DNA from: Enterobacteria phage WA13
Sequence record: NC_007821.1
Reading direction: 5' to 3' (one strand)
DNA: 6,068 nt
Shown: in pieces, positions 28 through 6,068 of the stretch
How the letters are laid out: the number at the start of each line of letters is the position of its first letter
How positions within the stretch are numbered: the stretch's first letter is position 1
Notes under the pieces: generated by a model
What the model was told of the DNA's origin: nothing
The model's database searches: none
Seen by the model: the letters and a program-made list of their open reading frames with translations, nothing else
Translations under genes and position numbers: made by a program

Positions 28-64
28 GACTCTTGCTTCAACGAATGAAGTAGGAGTCTTTATT
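28..64 (+). terminator. Terminator-like hairpin with U-rich tail just downstream of gene H (across the circular junction); candidate TH
   Basis: Arms 28-40 (gactcttgcttca) and 46-58 (tgaagtaggagtc) pair over 13 positions, two of them G-U wobbles in RNA, with loop acgaa (41-45), followed by TTTATT (59-64). The 3' arm contains the TAGGAG Shine-Dalgarno (51-56) of the ORF starting at 65. Hand-folded, no energy calculation. Confidence 0.45.
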
Positions 65-436: not shown

Positions 437-526
437 ATGGAAACTGTTGTCGGAAAATTTATTGCTTTGGCTGTTGTTGCTCTTATGCTGTATGGAATTG
501 CCCGCTTAATTCGGAGGTTCCCGTGA
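437..526 (+). CDS. Hypothetical small hydrophobic peptide (29 aa, METVVGKFIALAVVALMLYGIARLIRRFP)
   Basis: ATG at 437 with GGAG (427-430) 6 nt upstream, TGA at 524-526. Single predicted membrane-spanning stretch followed by a basic RLIRR tail. Codons mostly T-ending (act gtt gga.. gct gtt gtt gct ctt). Same frame as ORF 65..433, one codon after its stop. Below the 60-aa cutoff of the supplied ORF track. Confidence 0.3.
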   Translation: METVVGKFIALAVVALMLYGIARLIRRFP

Positions 527-758: not shown

Positions 759-2243
759 ATGGCTTCTGAAATCTTCTCTGATGTTGTTAAGTCTGTTTGG
801 TCGCACGCTACGGCTAAGCACGCTCATCTTCGTATGGCTGTTCAGGTTGATAATCGTAGTCGCCTTCTTTCTGATTTGGTTTACCAGTTGGAAAAGCGCC
901 TTTCCGAAGAGACTCATTTGGATGATGAGACTTATGCCCTTTATGAATCTCAGACTGGCCTTTTGGAAGATCATATGGCACTGGTTCGGAAGTGTGCAGC
1001 CCAACTTGATAATAGTAACACTATAGACCACCGTACCCCTTTGGATGCCGAATGTGTTTTCCTGTTTGAAATGATTTGCCCAGGCGTTCGCTACGGTAAA
1101 ACGTTGAATTCTCTTTGGACTAAGTATGTTGCTCAATGGCCTGAGAAGTTAATTCGTCAAGAGTTAGACATGGTTAAGCCTTTATCCTTTAAGGATGAGG
1201 TTGCTAAGTACATGGAGAAGATGCAGGAAAAAACACGCAAAAATCGCATGACTCAAAAAGTAATTAATGAGATGCGTATTGCTCACCAAAAGGGCTGGTT
1301 TTTCGTATTTGATACGTTGACACTTGCTGATGATCGTTTGCAGGCTTTTAATGAAAACCCCAATGCTCTTCGTGATTATTTCAGGACTGTTGGTCGAGCT
1401 GTTCTGCGCGCTGAAGGTCGTTCGGTTAAGGATTCCTACAACGATTGCTATCGCTATCTTTGTGTGCCGGAGTTTGGAGGTCAGCACGGTCGTCTTCATT
1501 GGCATGTTGTGCATATGGTGCGGACTCTTCCTTTGGGAAGTTACGACCCTAATTTCGGTCGCAAGGTACGTAATTATCGCCAGATTAACTCGTTCCGTGG
1601 CATGTGGCCTTATGGCTTCACGCAACCGATAGCTGTACGCTATCAACATGATGCTTATTCTCGCAAAGGTTGGTTGTGGCCTGTTGACAAATCAGGTAAA
1701 GCAATGCAGAGTAAGCCCTATCAGGCGGTCGCATGGTATGTGACCAAATATGTAGCTAAGCAATCTGACCAGCGTCAGAAAGCTATTACTGAGAGACAAA
1801 AAAAATGCAAGAATCCACTTATGGCAATCTGTCTGAAAAAGGAATTCAGAGTTCGCAGCAGCCGGAAACTCGGAATGGAGTTACCGTCGATGGCGCATCT
1901 CAGCAACAAAGTGCTTCTGGAGCTGAGCCGAATCAGCTTCGATTCCAGCCCTCTGTATCAGATAGTGAAAGAGAACGCCAAAAAGCAATTGACCTTGAAC
2001 ATCGGCGCGCTGCCTTTGCACGTCATTTTGGATGTGCGCCCGGAAGTGAGAAGTATGTTGAAAAATATCCGTCGTTTGATGAAAAAGACACCCGAGTTCA
2101 ATTGGCAGAGTTCTATCGCTTCAATGACGGTCACCTTAAAAAATGGGGATATTTCTGATGAAGCACGTCAATACATTATTGATGCAGGAATTACGCCTTT
2201 TGATTTGCGAGCTAAAGCGACTCAAACTTTCGGCGGTAAGTGA
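759..2243 (+). CDS. A: Replication initiation protein A (rolling-circle HUH endonuclease)
   Basis: 494-aa ORF, ATG 759, TGA 2241-2243, SD GAGGG 745-749. C-terminal two-thirds align by eye with phiX174 protein A (GWFFVFDTLTLADDRL, NPNALRDYFR, CVPEFG, HUH-like GRLHWHVVHM, two-tyrosine motif WYVTKYVAK, C-terminal GITPFDLRAKATQTFGGK). Contains the conserved ori(+) sequence. Confidence 0.92.
   Translation: MASEIFSDVVKSVWSHATAKHAHLRMAVQVDNRSRLLSDLVYQLEKRLSEETHLDDETYALYESQTGLLEDHMALVRKCAAQLDNSNTIDHRTPLDAECVFLFEMICPGVRYGKTLNSLWTKYVAQWPEKLIRQELDMVKPLSFKDEVAKYMEKMQEKTRKNRMTQKVINEMRIAHQKGWFFVFDTLTLADDRLQAFNENPNALRDYFRTVGRAVLRAEGRSVKDSYNDCYRYLCVPEFGGQHGRLHWHVVHMVRTLPLGSYDPNFGRKVRNYRQINSFRGMWPYGFTQPIAVRYQHDAYSRKGWLWPVDKSGKAMQSKPYQAVAWYVTKYVAKQSDQRQKAITERQKKCKNPLMAICLKKEFRVRSSRKLGMELPSMAHLSNKVLLELSRISFDSSPLYQIVKENAKKQLTLNIGALPLHVILDVRPEVRSMLKNIRRLMKKTPEFNWQSSIASMTVTLKNGDISDEARQYIIDAGITPFDLRAKATQTFGGK
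1002..1031 (+). other. Viral (+) strand origin of replication, 30-nt protein A recognition and nicking sequence
   Basis: CAACTTGATAATAGTAACACTATAGACCAC differs at only about 3 positions from the phiX174 origin CAACTTGATATTAATAACACTATAGACCAC as I recall it. The expected nick is between G1008 and A1009. Lies inside gene A, as in phiX174 and G4. Confidence 0.8.
1212..2243 (+). CDS. A*: A* (in-frame internal initiation product of gene A); start uncertain
   Basis: phiX174 makes a 341-aa A* from an internal ATG shortly upstream of the conserved GWF..DTLTLADDRL block. Here the in-frame ATGs are 1212, 1221 and 1248; 1212 has AAGGATGAGG (1191-1200) upstream and gives 343 aa. The start cannot be fixed from sequence alone. 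Confidence 0.3.
   Translation: MEKMQEKTRKNRMTQKVINEMRIAHQKGWFFVFDTLTLADDRLQAFNENPNALRDYFRTVGRAVLRAEGRSVKDSYNDCYRYLCVPEFGGQHGRLHWHVVHMVRTLPLGSYDPNFGRKVRNYRQINSFRGMWPYGFTQPIAVRYQHDAYSRKGWLWPVDKSGKAMQSKPYQAVAWYVTKYVAKQSDQRQKAITERQKKCKNPLMAICLKKEFRVRSSRKLGMELPSMAHLSNKVLLELSRISFDSSPLYQIVKENAKKQLTLNIGALPLHVILDVRPEVRSMLKNIRRLMKKTPEFNWQSSIASMTVTLKNGDISDEARQYIIDAGITPFDLRAKATQTFGGK
1805..2158 (+). CDS. B: Internal scaffolding protein B (in a different frame inside gene A)
   Basis: 117-aa ORF inside A. The C-terminus LAEFYRFNDGHLKKWGYF matches the phiX174 B C-terminus (..AEFYRFHDAEVNTFGYF); the divergent N-terminal half is typical for B. Weak SD GAGAG 1791-1795. Confidence 0.85.
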   Translation: MQESTYGNLSEKGIQSSQQPETRNGVTVDGASQQQSASGAEPNQLRFQPSVSDSERERQKAIDLEHRRAAFARHFGCAPGSEKYVEKYPSFDEKDTRVQLAEFYRFNDGHLKKWGYF

Positions 2244-2319
2244 CCCGGATTTTTCTCAGGAGAAGATTCATGCTGAGCTCGACTCGTTACTACGCAAGTT
2301 ATCGCGCTACTTTGACTAA
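2158..2319 (+). CDS. K: Protein K (small non-essential protein overlapping the A/C junction)
   Basis: ATG 2158 overlaps the B stop (TGATG, 2156-2160), as in phiX174. 53 codons translated by hand without an internal stop: MKHVNTLLMQELRLLICELKRLKLSAVSDPDFSQEKIHAELDSLLRKLSRYFD, TAA 2317-2319. Resembles phiX174 K (..KQELLLLVYELNRSGLLA..). Below the ORF-track size cutoff. Confidence 0.7.
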   Translation: MKHVNTLLMQELRLLICELKRLKLSAVSDPDFSQEKIHAELDSLLRKLSRYFD

Positions 2320-2476
2320 GCAGCTGATGTTTTTGACTAAAGCTGACTTTACCAATGATGATGAAAAATGGCTTAATGCCTTTGGTAATTTGCTCCGTCA
2401 GTGGTTTCAGATTGAGGATTGGAAAGGCAATCATAAAAAATTGCTTGACGATTTAAAAAAACGTGATTACATTTGA
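2270..2476 (+). CDS. C: Protein C (DNA maturation/packaging switch protein)
   Basis: ATG 2270 with AGGAG (2258-2262) 7 nt upstream, TGA 2474-2476, 68 aa. Similar to phiX174 C (shared ..DEEKWLN.. region). An alternative GTG at 2240 overlaps the A stop (GTGA) but lacks a comparable SD. Confidence 0.75.
   Translation: MLSSTRYYASYRATLTKQLMFLTKADFTNDDEKWLNAFGNLLRQWFQIEDWKGNHKKLLDDLKKRDYI
2445..2473 (+). promoter_or_regulatory. Sigma70-type promoter PD at the end of gene C, driving D-E-J-F-G-H
   Basis: TTGACG (2445-2450), 17-nt spacer atttaaaaaaacgtgat, TACATT (2468-2473). Closely resembles the phiX174 PD region as I recall it (TTGACA-ttttaaaagagcgtgga-TTACTAT). Confidence 0.55.
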
Positions 2477-2519
2477 GCTGTTTCAAGGTTTCTTACCCAT
2501 TAAATGTTAGGAGAATGTT

Positions 2520-2978
2520 ATGTCTAATCTTGTTGCTACTGATGTTAACTTTGCTACTTCTGTTGCTGCTCTGAAGATGCTTCAGGCTTCCGCTGTTCTG
2601 GATATTACCGAGGAGGATTTTGATTTCCTGACTGGTGATAAAATTTGGATTGCTACTGACCGCAACCGTGCGCGTCGCTGTGTTGAGGCTTGTGTTTATG
2701 GAACACTGGACTTTGTGGGATACCCTCGCTTTCCTGCTCCTGTTGAGTTTATTGCTGCCGTCATTGCTTATTATGTTCATCCCGTCAACATTCAGACGGC
2801 CTGCCTCATCATGGAAGGCGCTGAGTTTACGGAAAACATTGTTAATGGCGTCGAGCGTCCGGTTAAAGCCGCTGAGCTCTTCGCGTACACCTTGCGTGTT
2901 AAGGCCGGATTCAAAGAAACGGTTCTGAGCGCTGAAGAGAATGCTCGTCAGAAACTTCGTGCAAGTGGAGTAATGTAA
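2520..2978 (+). CDS. D: External scaffolding protein D
   Basis: 152-aa ORF, AGGAG (2509-2513) 6 nt before ATG 2520. Near-identical over long stretches to phiX174 D (LQASAVLD.TE.DFDFLT, RARRCVEACVYGTLDFVGYPRFPAPVEFIAAVIAYYVHPVNIQTACLIMEGAEFTENI, C-terminal GVM). Confidence 0.95.
   Translation: MSNLVATDVNFATSVAALKMLQASAVLDITEEDFDFLTGDKIWIATDRNRARRCVEACVYGTLDFVGYPRFPAPVEFIAAVIAYYVHPVNIQTACLIMEGAEFTENIVNGVERPVKAAELFAYTLRVKAGFKETVLSAEENARQKLRASGVM
2698..2928 (+). CDS. E: Lysis protein E (MraY inhibitor), in a different frame inside gene D
   Basis: ATG 2698 with GAGG (2685-2688) upstream; 76 aa. The N-terminal transmembrane region WTLWDTLAFLLLLSLLLPSLLIMFIPSTF is essentially identical to phiX174 E, including the essential Pro in LLLPSLL. 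The supplied ORF 2635..2928 is this frame extended to an upstream GTG. Confidence 0.85.
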   Translation: MEHWTLWDTLAFLLLLSLLLPSLLIMFIPSTFRRPASSWKALSLRKTLLMASSVRLKPLSSSRTPCVLRPDSKKRF

Positions 2979-2979
2979 T

Positions 2980-3054
2980 ATGAAGAAAGCTCGTCGTTCC
3001 CCTTCTCGTAAGAAAGGCGCTCGTCTCTGGTATGTAGGCGGTTCTCAATTTTAA
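2980..3054 (+). CDS. J: DNA-binding/packaging protein J (small basic protein)
   Basis: ATG 2980, two nt after the D stop. MKKARRSPSRKKGARLWYVGGSQF (24 aa), TAA 3052-3054. The C-terminus GARLWYVGG.QF matches phiX174 J; the short length fits the G4/alpha3 type. SD GGAG 2967-2970. Confidence 0.8.
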   Translation: MKKARRSPSRKKGARLWYVGGSQF

Positions 3055-3059
3055 TTAAC

Positions 3060-3073
3060 GGGGCTTCGGCCCC
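3060..3073 (+). terminator. J-F spacer hairpin GGGGCTTCGGCCCC (UUCG tetraloop); likely weak terminator / mRNA-stabilising structure
   Basis: Perfect 5-bp G/C stem closing a C(UUCG)G tetraloop. No strong U tract follows (tataagg), so termination would be partial. The F Shine-Dalgarno AAGGA lies at 3077-3081. Confidence 0.5.
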
Positions 3074-3088
3074 TATAAGGATTCTTAA

Positions 3089-4372
3089 ATGTCAAACGTG
3101 CAAACTTCCGCTGAACGTATTCCTCACGACCTTTCTCATCTGGTTTTTGATGCAGGCAAAATTGGTCGTTTAAAGGTTGTTTCTTGGACTCCTGTTGTTG
3201 CAGGTGATTCTTTTGAGCTTGATATGATTGGCGCTATTCGCCTTTCCCCGCTTCGTCGTGGCCTTGCTGTTGACTCTCGTGTTGACCTGTTCACGTTTTA
3301 TGTCCCTCATCGTCATGTATATGGTGAGCAGTGGATTGATTTTATGAAGCAAGGTGTTGATGCTGCTCCTTTGGCCCCTGTTCAGTGCTCTCGCGGTTGG
3401 GATAGTGCTCAGTATCTTGCTACTATTCCGTCTAGTAACTTAAAGGTTCCTAAGTTTCTTCATCAAGGTTACCTGAACATTTACAATAATTACTTTAAAG
3501 CTCCGTGGATGGATGACCTGACTTATGCCAACCCGTCTAATATGGAGGGTGAAGATGTTCGTTTTGGTGTTCGTGCATGTAACTTGAAAACTATTTGGAC
3601 TGCTCCGCTTCCTCCGGATACTGAAACCTCTCATTCTATGGAGACTGAAACCAACTCCATTGACATTATGGGTTTGCAGGCCGCTTATGCTCAATTACAT
3701 ACTGAGCAGGAGCGTGATTACTTCATGACTCGTTATCGTGATATTGTTAACGAATTTGGAGGTAGTACTTCTTATGATGCGGATAATCGTCCTTTGCTTG
3801 TTATGCATTCTGAGTTCTGGGCCTCAGGCTATGATGTTGACGGCACCGACCAAAGCTCTCTCGGTCAGTTCTCCGGTCGTGTCCAGCAGACGTTTAAGCA
3901 TTCAGTACCGCGATTCTTCTGCCCTGAGCATGGCACTATGTTCACACTCGCATTGGTCCGCTTCCCGCCGACTCATGAAATGGAGATGCATTACTTAGTT
4001 GGTAAAGAAGATTTGACTTATACTGATTTGGCTTGTGACCCTGCTTTGATGGCTAACTTGCCTCCTCGTGAGGTTAATATGTCTCAGTTCTTCCATTCTG
4101 GAAGTGCTAGTGCTAAGTTTAAGATCGCTGAAGGTCAGTGGTATCGCATGCAGCCTGATCGCGTTGCATTGCCGTATAACTATCTTGATGGTTTTCCGTT
4201 CTATAGCGCGATTCCGTCTGATGATATTAAGCAGCGCGTTCTGGTTAATACTGATAACTACGATGAGGTTTTCCAGTCTATGCAGCTTGCGCACTGGAAT
4301 ATGCAGACTAAGTTTAATTGCACCATTTATCGTAATATGCCGACCACTCGCGACTCTATTATGACCTCTTGA
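3089..4372 (+). CDS. F: Major capsid protein F
   Basis: 427-aa ORF. Long stretches match phiX174 F (MSN.QT.AER.PHDLSH, FTFYVPHRHVYGEQWI, GYLNIYNNYFKAPWM, DIMGLQAAYA, LVMHS..WASGYDVDGTDQ.SLGQFSGRVQQT.KHSVPRFF.PEHGTMFTLALVRFPPT, C-terminal PTTRDSIMTS). Confidence 0.95.
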   Translation: MSNVQTSAERIPHDLSHLVFDAGKIGRLKVVSWTPVVAGDSFELDMIGAIRLSPLRRGLAVDSRVDLFTFYVPHRHVYGEQWIDFMKQGVDAAPLAPVQCSRGWDSAQYLATIPSSNLKVPKFLHQGYLNIYNNYFKAPWMDDLTYANPSNMEGEDVRFGVRACNLKTIWTAPLPPDTETSHSMETETNSIDIMGLQAAYAQLHTEQERDYFMTRYRDIVNEFGGSTSYDADNRPLLVMHSEFWASGYDVDGTDQSSLGQFSGRVQQTFKHSVPRFFCPEHGTMFTLALVRFPPTHEMEMHYLVGKEDLTYTDLACDPALMANLPPREVNMSQFFHSGSASAKFKIAEGQWYRMQPDRVALPYNYLDGFPFYSAIPSDDIKQRVLVNTDNYDEVFQSMQLAHWNMQTKFNCTIYRNMPTTRDSIMTS

Positions 4373-4378
4373 TTATGT

Positions 4379-4392
4379 GGGGCTTCGGCCCC
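4379..4392 (+). terminator. F-G spacer hairpin GGGGCTTCGGCCCC (second identical copy); likely weak terminator / mRNA-stabilising structure
   Basis: Same 14-nt sequence as 3060-3073, followed by cTTTaagg and the G Shine-Dalgarno AAGGA (4396-4400). Confidence 0.5.
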
Positions 4393-4409
4393 CTTTAAGG
4401 ATATTGATT

Positions 4410-4955
4410 ATGTTTCAAGTTTATGTATCTAAACATGTTGCTCCGTTCACCTCTGTGAATCGTGCCTTTTCTATTGCCCCTGCCGCCAATCCCGAAGTTG
4501 TTAACTCTGGTGAGATTGTTGCAGGTCGTTCTACTTTTCGCATTGCTTCTTCTATTGCTTCTGCTTCCAATGGTAGTGGTTTTGCTTTTGTTCAGATGAT
4601 GGATCCGAATTCTCCTGATTCTCAGCAGGTTTTCTCTGTTGCTGCTTCGTTGTCCTTTAGTGTTGATTCGAATTATATTCCTTGTGTTGTTCGTTTTGAG
4701 AGCACTGTTGCTCAGCCTACCAGCTTTGATATTGCAACCGCTGATTTTATTCCGGTTGAGGCTTCTGCCCTTTCTCCTCGTGCGCTTAGCGTTCGCGATT
4801 GTGTTACCGTTGATGTTAAGCCTCGTACTGAAGGCAATAATGTTTTTGTTGGTGTGGTTTTCTTCTCTGCTGCCGCTAATGCTGGTAATGTCACTGGTGT
4901 TGTTTCGATGGCTCAGGTTGACCACGAAGTTACAGCTTTGCAGCCGCTTAAATAA
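4410..4955 (+). CDS. G: Major spike protein G
   Basis: ATG 4410 (MFQVYVSKH.., compare phiX174 MFQTFISRH..) with AAGGA 9 nt upstream, TAA 4953-4955, 181 aa. Conserved CVVRFES, VRDCVTVDVKPRT.GNNVFVG and C-terminal LQPLK. The supplied ORF start at 4377 is a GTG inside the upstream hairpin and is not used. Confidence 0.9.
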   Translation: MFQVYVSKHVAPFTSVNRAFSIAPAANPEVVNSGEIVAGRSTFRIASSIASASNGSGFAFVQMMDPNSPDSQQVFSVAASLSFSVDSNYIPCVVRFESTVAQPTSFDIATADFIPVEASALSPRALSVRDCVTVDVKPRTEGNNVFVGVVFFSAAANAGNVTGVVSMAQVDHEVTALQPLK

Positions 4956-5090
4956 AAGGCTGCCGCACTCCCGGTTAGATGCCTGCCTAGTGTAGGGCAG
5001 ACCGAGCCGTACGGAGATACCCGATAAACTAGGAACGTGGAAGGCGCAAGCCGCCTTCCCTCCTGCTAAGCCCCAAAAGGAGTTACAGCG
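4956..5090 (+). other. G-H intergenic region with stable hairpins; probable complementary (-) strand origin (DnaG primase-dependent, G4-type)
   Basis: 135-nt non-coding spacer, far longer than J-F or F-G. Contains a perfect 8-bp GC-rich hairpin (ggaaggcg / caagc / cgccttcc, 5039-5059), the palindrome ccgtacgg (5007-5014) and a ctgcc/ggcag stem-loop (4984-5000). From memory, the primase-dependent origin of alpha3/St-1/phiK maps between G and H, whereas G4 has it between F and G. H Shine-Dalgarno AAGGAG at 5077-5082. Confidence 0.4.
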
Positions 5091-6068
5091 ATGTTAGGTG
5101 CCGTTGTAGGTGGTATTGCTTCAGCCTTAGCTGGTGGAGCCGCTTCTAAGCTGTTTGGTGGTAAACCTGCCGCTCAAGCCGCTACCGAGTCCTCTGGCCT
5201 TTCTAATGGTCAAGGCGTTATTGGTATGGATCAAGATGCTGGTATTCAGTCAGCTATTCAGGGCTCTAATGTTCCCAATGGTCAGATTCCTGCCCCCACG
5301 CAGACTGGTGGCGTTATGTCTGATGCTAAAAATATGATTAAGAATGCTGGTAAAGATTTGCTTGATGGCGTTATGACCGCTGGAAGTGATCGCATTAAGC
5401 AGGCATTGGTTGATAAGTTGAGTGGTAACGATGCAAAGAAACAAGGACAAGCAACCCGTGATTACTTGGCTGCGGCCTTCCCTGAGCTCAATGCATGGGA
5501 ACGTGCTGGAGCTGGTGCTTCCGGTGCCGGATTGGAGTCTTCCGGCCAGAATCAGCAAAAGGAGTTGATGCGTATGCAGCTGGATACTCAGAAGGATATT
5601 GCTAAGATGCAAATGCATAATAATTTGCAGATTGCTGGTATTCAGTCCGCTACTTCTCGCGAGAATACGAAGGATTCAGTTTATGCTCAGAATGAGATGC
5701 TTAAATTTAATCAACAGGAGTCACAGGCACGCGTTGAGTCTATCCTCGCCAACACTGACCTTACGGCTAAACAGGCTGCCCATGAAATTATGAGAATGGC
5801 CCTTACTCGTGCTCAGGAGACTGGTCAGCATTTAACTAATAGTCAGATTATGGCATTGGAGAAAAAAGTTTATGCAGAAATCGGAAAAATTCATCAAGAT
5901 ACTCAAAACGCTCGTTATGGTAGCTCTCAAGTTACTGCTGCGGCGAAAGATGTTACGAATATGATTACCGATGCCACTTCTGGTGCTGCCGATTGGGTCT
6001 CTCAACAGTGGAATTCTTTCTTTAAAGATGGCAAGTCTAATGGTATTCCCCTCAATACCAGAAAATAA
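5091..6068 (+). CDS. H: Minor spike / DNA pilot protein H
   Basis: 325-aa ORF with AAGGAG 8 nt upstream. Matches phiX174 H (M.GA..GGIASALAGGA.SKLFGG, RDYLAAAFPELNAWERAGA, IAGIQSATSR.NTKD.VYAQNEML, QNARYGSS). The stop codon TAA is the last three bases of the window. Confidence 0.92.
   Translation: MLGAVVGGIASALAGGAASKLFGGKPAAQAATESSGLSNGQGVIGMDQDAGIQSAIQGSNVPNGQIPAPTQTGGVMSDAKNMIKNAGKDLLDGVMTAGSDRIKQALVDKLSGNDAKKQGQATRDYLAAAFPELNAWERAGAGASGAGLESSGQNQQKELMRMQLDTQKDIAKMQMHNNLQIAGIQSATSRENTKDSVYAQNEMLKFNQQESQARVESILANTDLTAKQAAHEIMRMALTRAQETGQHLTNSQIMALEKKVYAEIGKIHQDTQNARYGSSQVTAAAKDVTNMITDATSGAADWVSQQWNSFFKDGKSNGIPLNTRK

Follow-up and report, generated by a model that had tools for sequence, protein, structure and literature searches.

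Several very small membrane proteins with a single helix are known, among them the 29-aa KdpF and TisB, the 31-aa MgtS and the 49-aa AcrZ. In bacteria and phages, stop and start codons that overlap as ATGA or GTGA are a general design for the translational coupling of neighboring cistrons. Microviruses, which transcribe one strand only, have overprinted genes, with E lying in D, and B and K lying in A. A phage example of a small membrane inhibitor is Gp11 of phiNM1 (PMC11237401). The ORF of 29 codons described here (orf29) resembles KdpF, TisB, MgtS, AcrZ and Gp11 in its size, its single predicted helix, its charged flank and its apparently operon-embedded translation, but searches of Pfam, PHROGs, NCBIfam and PADLOC revealed no family that resembles it in sequence. 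With coupled cistrons it shares a stop-start overlap, a start codon 0–3 nt past the preceding stop and a Shine-Dalgarno (SD) sequence inside the preceding cistron, the coupling being read from this layout. With the overprinted genes of the microviruses it shares the level of third-position variation.

The region between genes H and A

The window, i.e., the whole stretch of DNA analyzed (6068 nt), is circular and comprises the entire genome of a microvirus of the alpha3-like group (Bullavirinae, Alphatrevirus); it is 99.3% identical to coliphage WA45 over the full length. Upstream of gene A lies an H-A intergenic region of 758 nt, which is unannotated in the records of WA45, alpha3, St-1 and phiK. 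The phiX174- and G4-like phages lack the cassette described below, and the alpha3-like phages have ∼700 nt extra at this place. The features of the region and the genes around it are the following:

1–758, H-A intergenic region
4–9, + strand, TTGACA that immediately follows the stop codon of H and is seen in almost every aligned relative
26–60, + strand, 15-bp hairpin whose 3′ arm holds the SD (GGAG) of orf122, followed by UUUAUUAUG
65–433, + strand, orf122, first cistron, whose product is sharply bipolar, being basic over the N-terminal half and very acidic over the C-terminal one
427–430, + strand, GGAG SD of orf29, within the last codons (Ala-Glu) of orf122 and 6 nt before the ATG
437–526, + strand, orf29, 29 codons, candidate single-helix membrane peptide METVVGKFIALAVVALMLYGIARLIRRFP
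513–517, + strand, GGAGG SD of orf58, made by the Arg-Arg codons of orf29
523–699, + strand, orf58, third cistron, whose GTG start overlaps the TGA of orf29 (GTGA)
696–725, + strand, promoter-like site before gene A (TTGACA, 18 nt, TATATT), 11/12 consensus and the best in the genome
726–757, + strand, hairpin and T6 run that abut the ATG of gene A, with the gene A SD inside the 3′ arm
759–6068, genes A, B, K, C, D, E, J, F, G and H
2698–2928, gene E (lysis), separate from orf29

Parts of this region have been recorded before. The alpha3 record M25640 from the 1980s has four ribosome-binding sites here, which correspond to window positions 53–57, 406–408, 427–430 and 513–518. In phage Lilleven (MK629527) three hypothetical CDS of 122, 29 and 58 aa are annotated, and the 29-aa CDS at 5769–5858 (QBZ71503.1) is the orthologue of orf29, with 93% identity. 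Five conserved reading frames in this region of the alpha3/WA13-like phages are credited to Rokyta (2006) by Wichman and Brown (2010; PMC2935103), and both the region and the phage group agree with the location of orf29. The ST-1 genome paper (PMC3324380) makes an equivalent statement on the reading frames of the region. Where they deal with the region, the Lilleven record and the account of the 2006 frames assign no function and give no selection test. In earlier sources orf29 already appears, then, as a frame labeled hypothetical or conserved, with no function assigned. What is new here is the evidence for coupling, the conservation across the genus including a deep lineage, and the apparent constraint in two frames. 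Since the ORF had been picked out earlier and has no assigned function, the present analysis chiefly provides a well-supported annotation.

A putative cassette of three genes, orf122-orf29-orf58, fills the H-A region of all known alpha3-like microviruses. The ATG of orf29 is found 0–3 nt past the TAA of orf122 in every sequence (TAA-NNN-ATG, or TAA-ATG in the divergent contig L059). At the other end, the stop of orf29 and the start of orf58 overlap as GTGA or ATGA in all sequences except ID32, where a 1-nt deletion ends orf29 two codons early. The start codon of orf58 is GTG in half of the sequences, and its SD has a duplex energy of −10.2 kcal/mol in these and of ∼−3.9 to −6.8 kcal/mol in the ATG variants. 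With a conserved close start and a stop/start overlap, orf29 has the layout of a coupled cistron. We propose that ribosomes finishing orf122 would re-initiate on orf29 and then pass to orf58; judging from the layout, handing ribosomes on in this way would give the three products in linked amounts.

The two hairpins flanking the cassette are more stable than shuffled sequences. The one at 26–60 is a perfect 15-bp stem (−20.8 kcal/mol, z = −6.4), whose arms vary among relatives (L037, L017, L059) yet seem pairable, as judged by eye only. For the one at 726–757 (−14.7 kcal/mol, z = −3.4), apparent compensatory changes in the arms, from ATAG/CTAC to AAAG/CTTT, were read by eye from the alignment. 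The junctions at 1–64 and 692–758 are built alike: each has TTGACA, ...CCCT.TAT..., a hairpin with the next SD in its 3′ arm, a T-rich run and an ATG. They look like copies of one design, perhaps of one sequence, and the arrangement suggests that the cassette arose by insertion or duplication inside an ancestral H-A promoter/terminator. The TTGACA at 4–9 is a possible −35 element for the cassette; the promoter scan found no convincing −10 for it. The junction hairpin would fold in RNA that reads through from upstream. RNA initiated at the promoter itself would be without the 5′ arm of the hairpin, and would therefore escape termination and leave its SD accessible.

Natural variants of the region were also seen. 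NC35 (DQ079872), which was isolated viable, has lost ∼29 nt (window ∼703–735), including the −10 of the gene A promoter together with the hairpin's 5′ arm. An insertion of ∼110 nt upstream extends orf122 N-terminally to 154 aa (MKPLTSSEIAVINSAICDLDDSIEEVESLVAS...) in loci L032–L036 (ERZ17996440, ERR1302523 and others). In St-1 (GQ149088/NC_012868, locus L005) a 1-nt deletion at ∼229 (TGC to TG-) frameshifts orf122, which is intact in the close relative Lilleven. This is either a sequencing error or a gene loss in a long-propagated laboratory stock. The 1992 sequence of alpha3 (NC_001330) has a frameshifted orf122 as well, and the resequenced DQ085810.2 does not. If the deletion in St-1 is real, the cassette is dispensable in the laboratory.

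To date the cassette has been found in this phage group only. Pfam, PHROGs, NCBIfam and PADLOC returned nothing significant for orf122, orf29, orf58 or the second-frame ORF alt30 described below. A tblastn search with orf29 against 50,697 phage records (E up to 10) gave matches confined to 25 alphatrevirus records, and homologues of orf122 and orf58 were found only in microvirus contigs of ∼6 kb. In a search for a host or plasmid origin, neither the 5,426 E. coli genomes nor the plasmids examined matched the cassette. By these similarity searches the three predicted proteins have no homologue outside the genus. The profile search with orf122 against 1.84 billion representatives yielded three matches, all microviral, including the distant relative P0030 (E = 1.6e-15). 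The AlphaFold model of orf122 is beta-rich and confident (pLDDT 89.8, pTM 0.81), from only 19 close sequences, and has no structural neighbor in the PDB. The model of orf58 (pLDDT 75) gave only insignificant fold matches of a winged-helix-like (ToxR/OmpR-like) kind.

Features and conservation of orf29

The initial annotation described 437–526 as an ORF of 29 codons that follows ORF 65–433 in the same frame, and its coordinates and translation are exact. The two ORFs are separated by TAA (431–433) and one codon, GTT, as it had said. Likewise, the GGAG that it placed at good spacing is located at 427–430, 6 nt upstream of the ATG; it is conserved in 29 of the 33 sequences and weakened to GGAA or GGGG in the other four. 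The SD/anti-SD duplex has a mean energy of −5.9 kcal/mol (32 sequences). The ten known genes range from −2.9 to −8.2 kcal/mol, nine of them at −5.5 to −8.2 and gene B at −2.9, and background ATGs have a mean of −2.3 kcal/mol, which is far weaker than orf29. The codon usage, which had been called phage-like, is indeed so: 45% of the codons end in T, compared with 48% in known genes. The codon-usage log-odds are +0.25 bits per codon, a value reached by only 2% of off-frame windows.

The peptide was also predicted to be one hydrophobic helix with a basic C-terminus. This is in accordance with our analysis, in which a hydrophobic core, F8–A22, has a mean Kyte-Doolittle value of 2.6 over 15 residues, comparable with the transmembrane segment of E. 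The best windows of 15–19 residues have means of 2.3–2.6 and summed Hessa dG values of −2.0 to +0.8 kcal/mol. The net charge is +3, and three of the four basic residues are in the C-terminal seven, where R23, R26 and R27 form the flank. As in single-pass small membrane proteins, there is one hydrophobic segment with a charged flank, but K7 and R23 enclose a hydrophobic core of only 15 residues, which is short for a full membrane span.

Outside annotated gene ends, the + strand has 13 ATG ORFs of 20–70 codons. Among these, only orf29, which lies outside every annotated gene, combines an SD at or below −5.5 kcal/mol with a hydrophobic segment. The T-richness of third codon positions in this genome often makes off-frame ORFs open and hydrophobic. 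An ORF of this kind by itself could thus be expected by chance, whereas the combination of features in orf29 could not. Gene finders call orf29 in most contigs, and it is annotated in Lilleven.

For the comparison across relatives we collected the region from 14 GenBank genomes, 12 IMG/VR loci, 4 metagenome loci and ∼20 public-assembly loci, which gave 33 distinct sequences. Counts out of 34 include in addition the divergent contig L059. We found orf29 intact, with 28–30 codons, in all 33 sequences (the 14 GenBank genomes included) and in L059. The initial annotation had named the reading frame and the hydrophobic profile as what should be compared between related phages, and both are kept in 33/33 relatives and in L059. 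The ATG is present in 34/34 sequences, and its first base A is invariant although this is a synonymous third position in the +1 frame. No indel is seen at 437–509 across the 33 sequences. Residues 1–21 are nearly invariant, and the replacements observed (V/I, F/L, A/S/T) are those expected for a membrane helix. The tail exists in two types, one ending in LIRRFP before the stop (GTGA overlap) and one ending in LI(S/D/N/G)R(T/I)L(K/R) (ATGA overlap). The two are unlike in sequence, and one is 3 nt longer than the other, but each preserves the reading frame, a basic charge and the overlap of stop and start.

The deepest comparison comes from L059, the contig of P0030. In its gene A, 37% of third positions are different from those of the window, and at the nucleotide level its orf122 homologue matches none of the other loci. 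Its orf29, METVIGKFIALAIVALMLYGIYVTINRILK, has 19 of the first 21 residues in common with the window; the ATG directly abuts the upstream TAA, and the overlap with orf58 is ATGA. The stretch 820–1475 of this contig (logan SRR20337160_149276) is a mosaic, with a highly divergent orf122 and with orf29 and orf58 near-identical to those of other phages. Such a pattern suggests recombination, with breakpoints where orf122 meets orf29, or else very unequal constraint. In a separate observation, the exact 29-aa sequence of the Lilleven-type orf29 (P0032) was found on 30 contigs, the longest of which, at 12,491 nt, is twice a microvirus genome. This contig may be a concatemer assembly artefact or a larger element carrying the cassette.

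As decoys we used ORFs inside gene H that lie in other frames. Two of them, at 5872–5964 (30 aa, SD −6.4 kcal/mol) and 5683–5793 (36 aa, SD −5.5 kcal/mol), are intact in 13/13 genomes and are probably by-products of the constraint on H. Because these decoys are also intact, ORF intactness is weak evidence at this divergence. Taken together with the signals of selection described below, the interpretation of orf29 as a real gene for a small membrane peptide is supported, and we regard it as reasonably probable.

Constraint on orf29 and on a possible second reading frame

The diversity at codon positions 1, 2 and 3 is.155,.100 and.322 in orf122 and.100,.054 and.212 in orf58, which is a textbook coding pattern. 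For orf29 the values are.178,.057 and.100. Its second positions are near-invariant (.021–.057), and its ratio of nonsynonymous to synonymous rates, 0.31–0.41, is similar to those of orf122 and orf58. A first position at least as diverse as the third is seen in just 5% of 24-codon windows of real genes. Since the first position of orf29 exceeds the third (.178 vs..100), which is rare in real genes, orf29 alone is not enough to explain the conservation.

The same is seen when sites are counted. Third positions capable of synonymous change are variable (minor allele at least 2) at 5/22 in orf29 vs. 236/355 in the neighboring genes (Fisher p = 1e-4). In 13 complete genomes, the variable share of third positions is 0.32 in orf29, 0.33 in the A/B overlap, 0.43 in the D/E overlap and 0.49–0.87 in non-overlapping genes. 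The synonymous sites at 437–508 are as conserved as those in the known overlapping-gene regions of the phage. Reduced synonymous variation over the overlap, as expected of an overprinted pair, is thus found in orf29. Recent recombinational homogenization of orf29 was rejected, as many intermediate-frequency polymorphisms are present at first codon positions while the third positions are quiet.

The extra constraint over the same 73 nt has a period of three and appears best explained by a second, overprinted ORF:

417–509, + strand, +1 frame, alt30, candidate overlapping ORF of 30 aa, MKLRSKLWKLLSENLLLWLLLLLCCMELPA, with its stop at 507–509

The predicted alt30 peptide has a basic N-terminus and a Leu-rich core. 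An alternative to our interpretation is that this ORF is the selected coding sequence and that orf29 is merely held open by its constraint. Besides the scarcity of variable third positions in orf29, this would agree with the gene-like diversity of the alternative frame, which is.000/.059/.114 at its three codon positions in 13 genomes and.057/.100/.178 in 32 sequences; third positions account for a share of 0.66, the same as the real-gene median, and 0 of 1363 fake +1 windows reached this value. It would also agree with the conservation of the ATG and the stop position in 32/32 sequences, with the N-terminal basic residues, which are kept in L059 despite the turnover of the sequence, and with Kodaira's alpha3 record, where a ribosome-binding site is marked at a matching position. 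However, the SD of alt30 is weak (−3.7 kcal/mol), and T-rich third positions make +1 frames open and hydrophobic automatically. The codon usage of alt30, −0.52 bits per codon, is off-frame-like, yet near that of the overprinted gene E (−0.61), which alt30 also resembles in hydrophobicity. No gene caller has ever called alt30 in the 15-billion-protein collection. Furthermore, the ATG, the SD and the stop/start overlap of orf29 are kept at sites that alt30 leaves free.

To separate the two frames, the 27 substitution events at 437–508 were sorted by their effect in both, and relative rates per mutational opportunity were calculated:

Synonymous in orf29, synonymous in the alternative frame:.333
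Synonymous in orf29, nonsynonymous in the alternative frame:.109 (.115 and.098 in the known overlaps)
Nonsynonymous in orf29, synonymous in the alternative frame:.085
Nonsynonymous in both:.031

Conditioning each frame on the other gave p = 0.008–0.07 per comparison, with only 27 events. Among the changes that alter the alternative frame, those synonymous in orf29 exceed the nonsynonymous ones 3.4-fold (p = 0.02), compared with ∼1 or less in the eight +2 controls. The effect of a change on orf29 therefore still counts once the alternative frame is given, unlike in these controls. In seven fake +1 and eight fake +2 frames the fake frame had no effect, with a marginal exception in gene F (p = 0.014, minor allele at least 2), and the direction of the dual-frame effect at 437–508 is opposite to that in all control genes tested. 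On this evidence we consider it unlikely that alt30 is the only selected frame.

We also noted a hydrophobic +1-frame ORF of 41 aa inside orf58, at 545–670, which is intact in 12/13 genomes. It has no sign of selection of its own, the rate being.077 for changes nonsynonymous in orf58 and synonymous here vs..090 for changes nonsynonymous in both. This ORF is probably among the frames counted by earlier authors.

In our interpretation orf29 is the primary frame, and the few events are suggestive of a second product, which makes it a serious but unproven candidate. That 417–509 (73–93 nt) encodes two overlapping membrane micropeptides in different frames is a possibility we put forward tentatively, with the expectation that it will more often prove wrong than right. 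The two would then be oppositely oriented: orf29, with its cationic C-terminus, would be N-out/C-in, and alt30, with its cationic N-terminus, would have the opposite orientation. Alternatively, ribosomes might enter the second frame by shifting +1 out of orf122, which would provide orf122 with a membrane anchor. Unlike E/D and B/K/A, the orf29/alt30 overlap spans only 73–93 nt, the ribosome-binding site of alt30 is weak and both candidate products are tiny.

A functional peptide need not be assumed if orf29 is translated purely as a ribosome relay from orf122 to orf58. The tight junctions on both sides, kept genus-wide, fit such a role, as do the orf58 SD inside the orf29 tail and the GTG start of orf58 in half of the sequences. 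A relay needs no set sequence, yet residues 1–21 of orf29 are near-invariant and its second positions are frozen, and the tail is basic even after complete replacement of its sequence. We therefore find a mere relay doubtful, a little more so than selection on alt30 by itself.

We think it very unlikely that the stretch is a conserved non-coding element, be it a binding site or a structure formed by RNA or ssDNA, with both ORFs incidental. Nucleotides 451–499 are highly conserved, synonymous sites included, but the constraint has a period of 3, which points to coding. No stable structure was predicted, as the MFE (−30.1 kcal/mol) lies above that of shuffled sequences (−32.9 kcal/mol; z = +0.89). 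Of 38 pairs in the consensus fold, which is weak, 1 covaries, and the promoter scan found no promoter-like site in the stretch. RNA structure as the cause of the conservation was rejected on the basis of this z value and the single covarying pair.

Finally, readthrough of the orf122 TAA into the hydrophobic peptide to form a membrane-anchored isoform, as raised in the initial annotation, is hardly credible, since the in-frame arrangement (TAA and one codon, or TAA alone, between the ORFs in 34/34 sequences) is equally explained by the SD-to-ATG distance, orf29 has an SD and ATG of its own, the stop is TAA, the least leaky stop codon in E. coli, in 34/34 sequences and never the leakier TGA or TAG, and the next base is A, G or T, without the conserved stimulatory context that goes with a leaky UGA or UAG in programmed readthrough.

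Proposed role of orf29 and its implications

Taken together, we favor the reading of 437–526 as a genuine gene for a small membrane peptide in the middle of the cassette, translationally coupled, with an accessory role in host interaction and with additional constraint from the +1 frame; on the sequence comparisons presented here the balance tips toward this reading as a whole. The peptide would insert in the inner membrane as one helix, from approximately V4 to I25. By the positive-inside rule, its Arg/Lys-rich C-terminus should be cytoplasmic. There, the tail would most likely bind or modulate a membrane protein, or tether the partners encoded in the cassette.

Identity of orf29 with the lysis protein E, an inhibitor of MraY, was rejected: E is encoded in the +1 frame of gene D and is present separately, whereas orf29 is situated in the H-A region, and no significant match to the E family was found in Pfam or PHROG. 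The initial annotation had named lysis timing, superinfection exclusion and host-protein inhibition as frequent roles of small phage membrane peptides. We suggest that the role of orf29 would be an accessory host interaction rather than lysis, which is supplied by gene E. That the cassette is accessory follows from its absence in phiX174- and G4-like phages and from the orf122 deletion in St-1.

Dual coding is directly testable, as single-nucleotide mutants can stop one frame and be silent in the other. If alt30 is real, it would form with orf29 a very small overprinted gene pair, previously unrecognized, in the very group where overlapping genes were discovered. If the coupled three-gene cassette is real, the reference annotations of WA45, alpha3, phiK, St-1 and others are incomplete. 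The cassette is also a compact and tractable place in which accessory roles in host interaction can be sought within a model family of phages.
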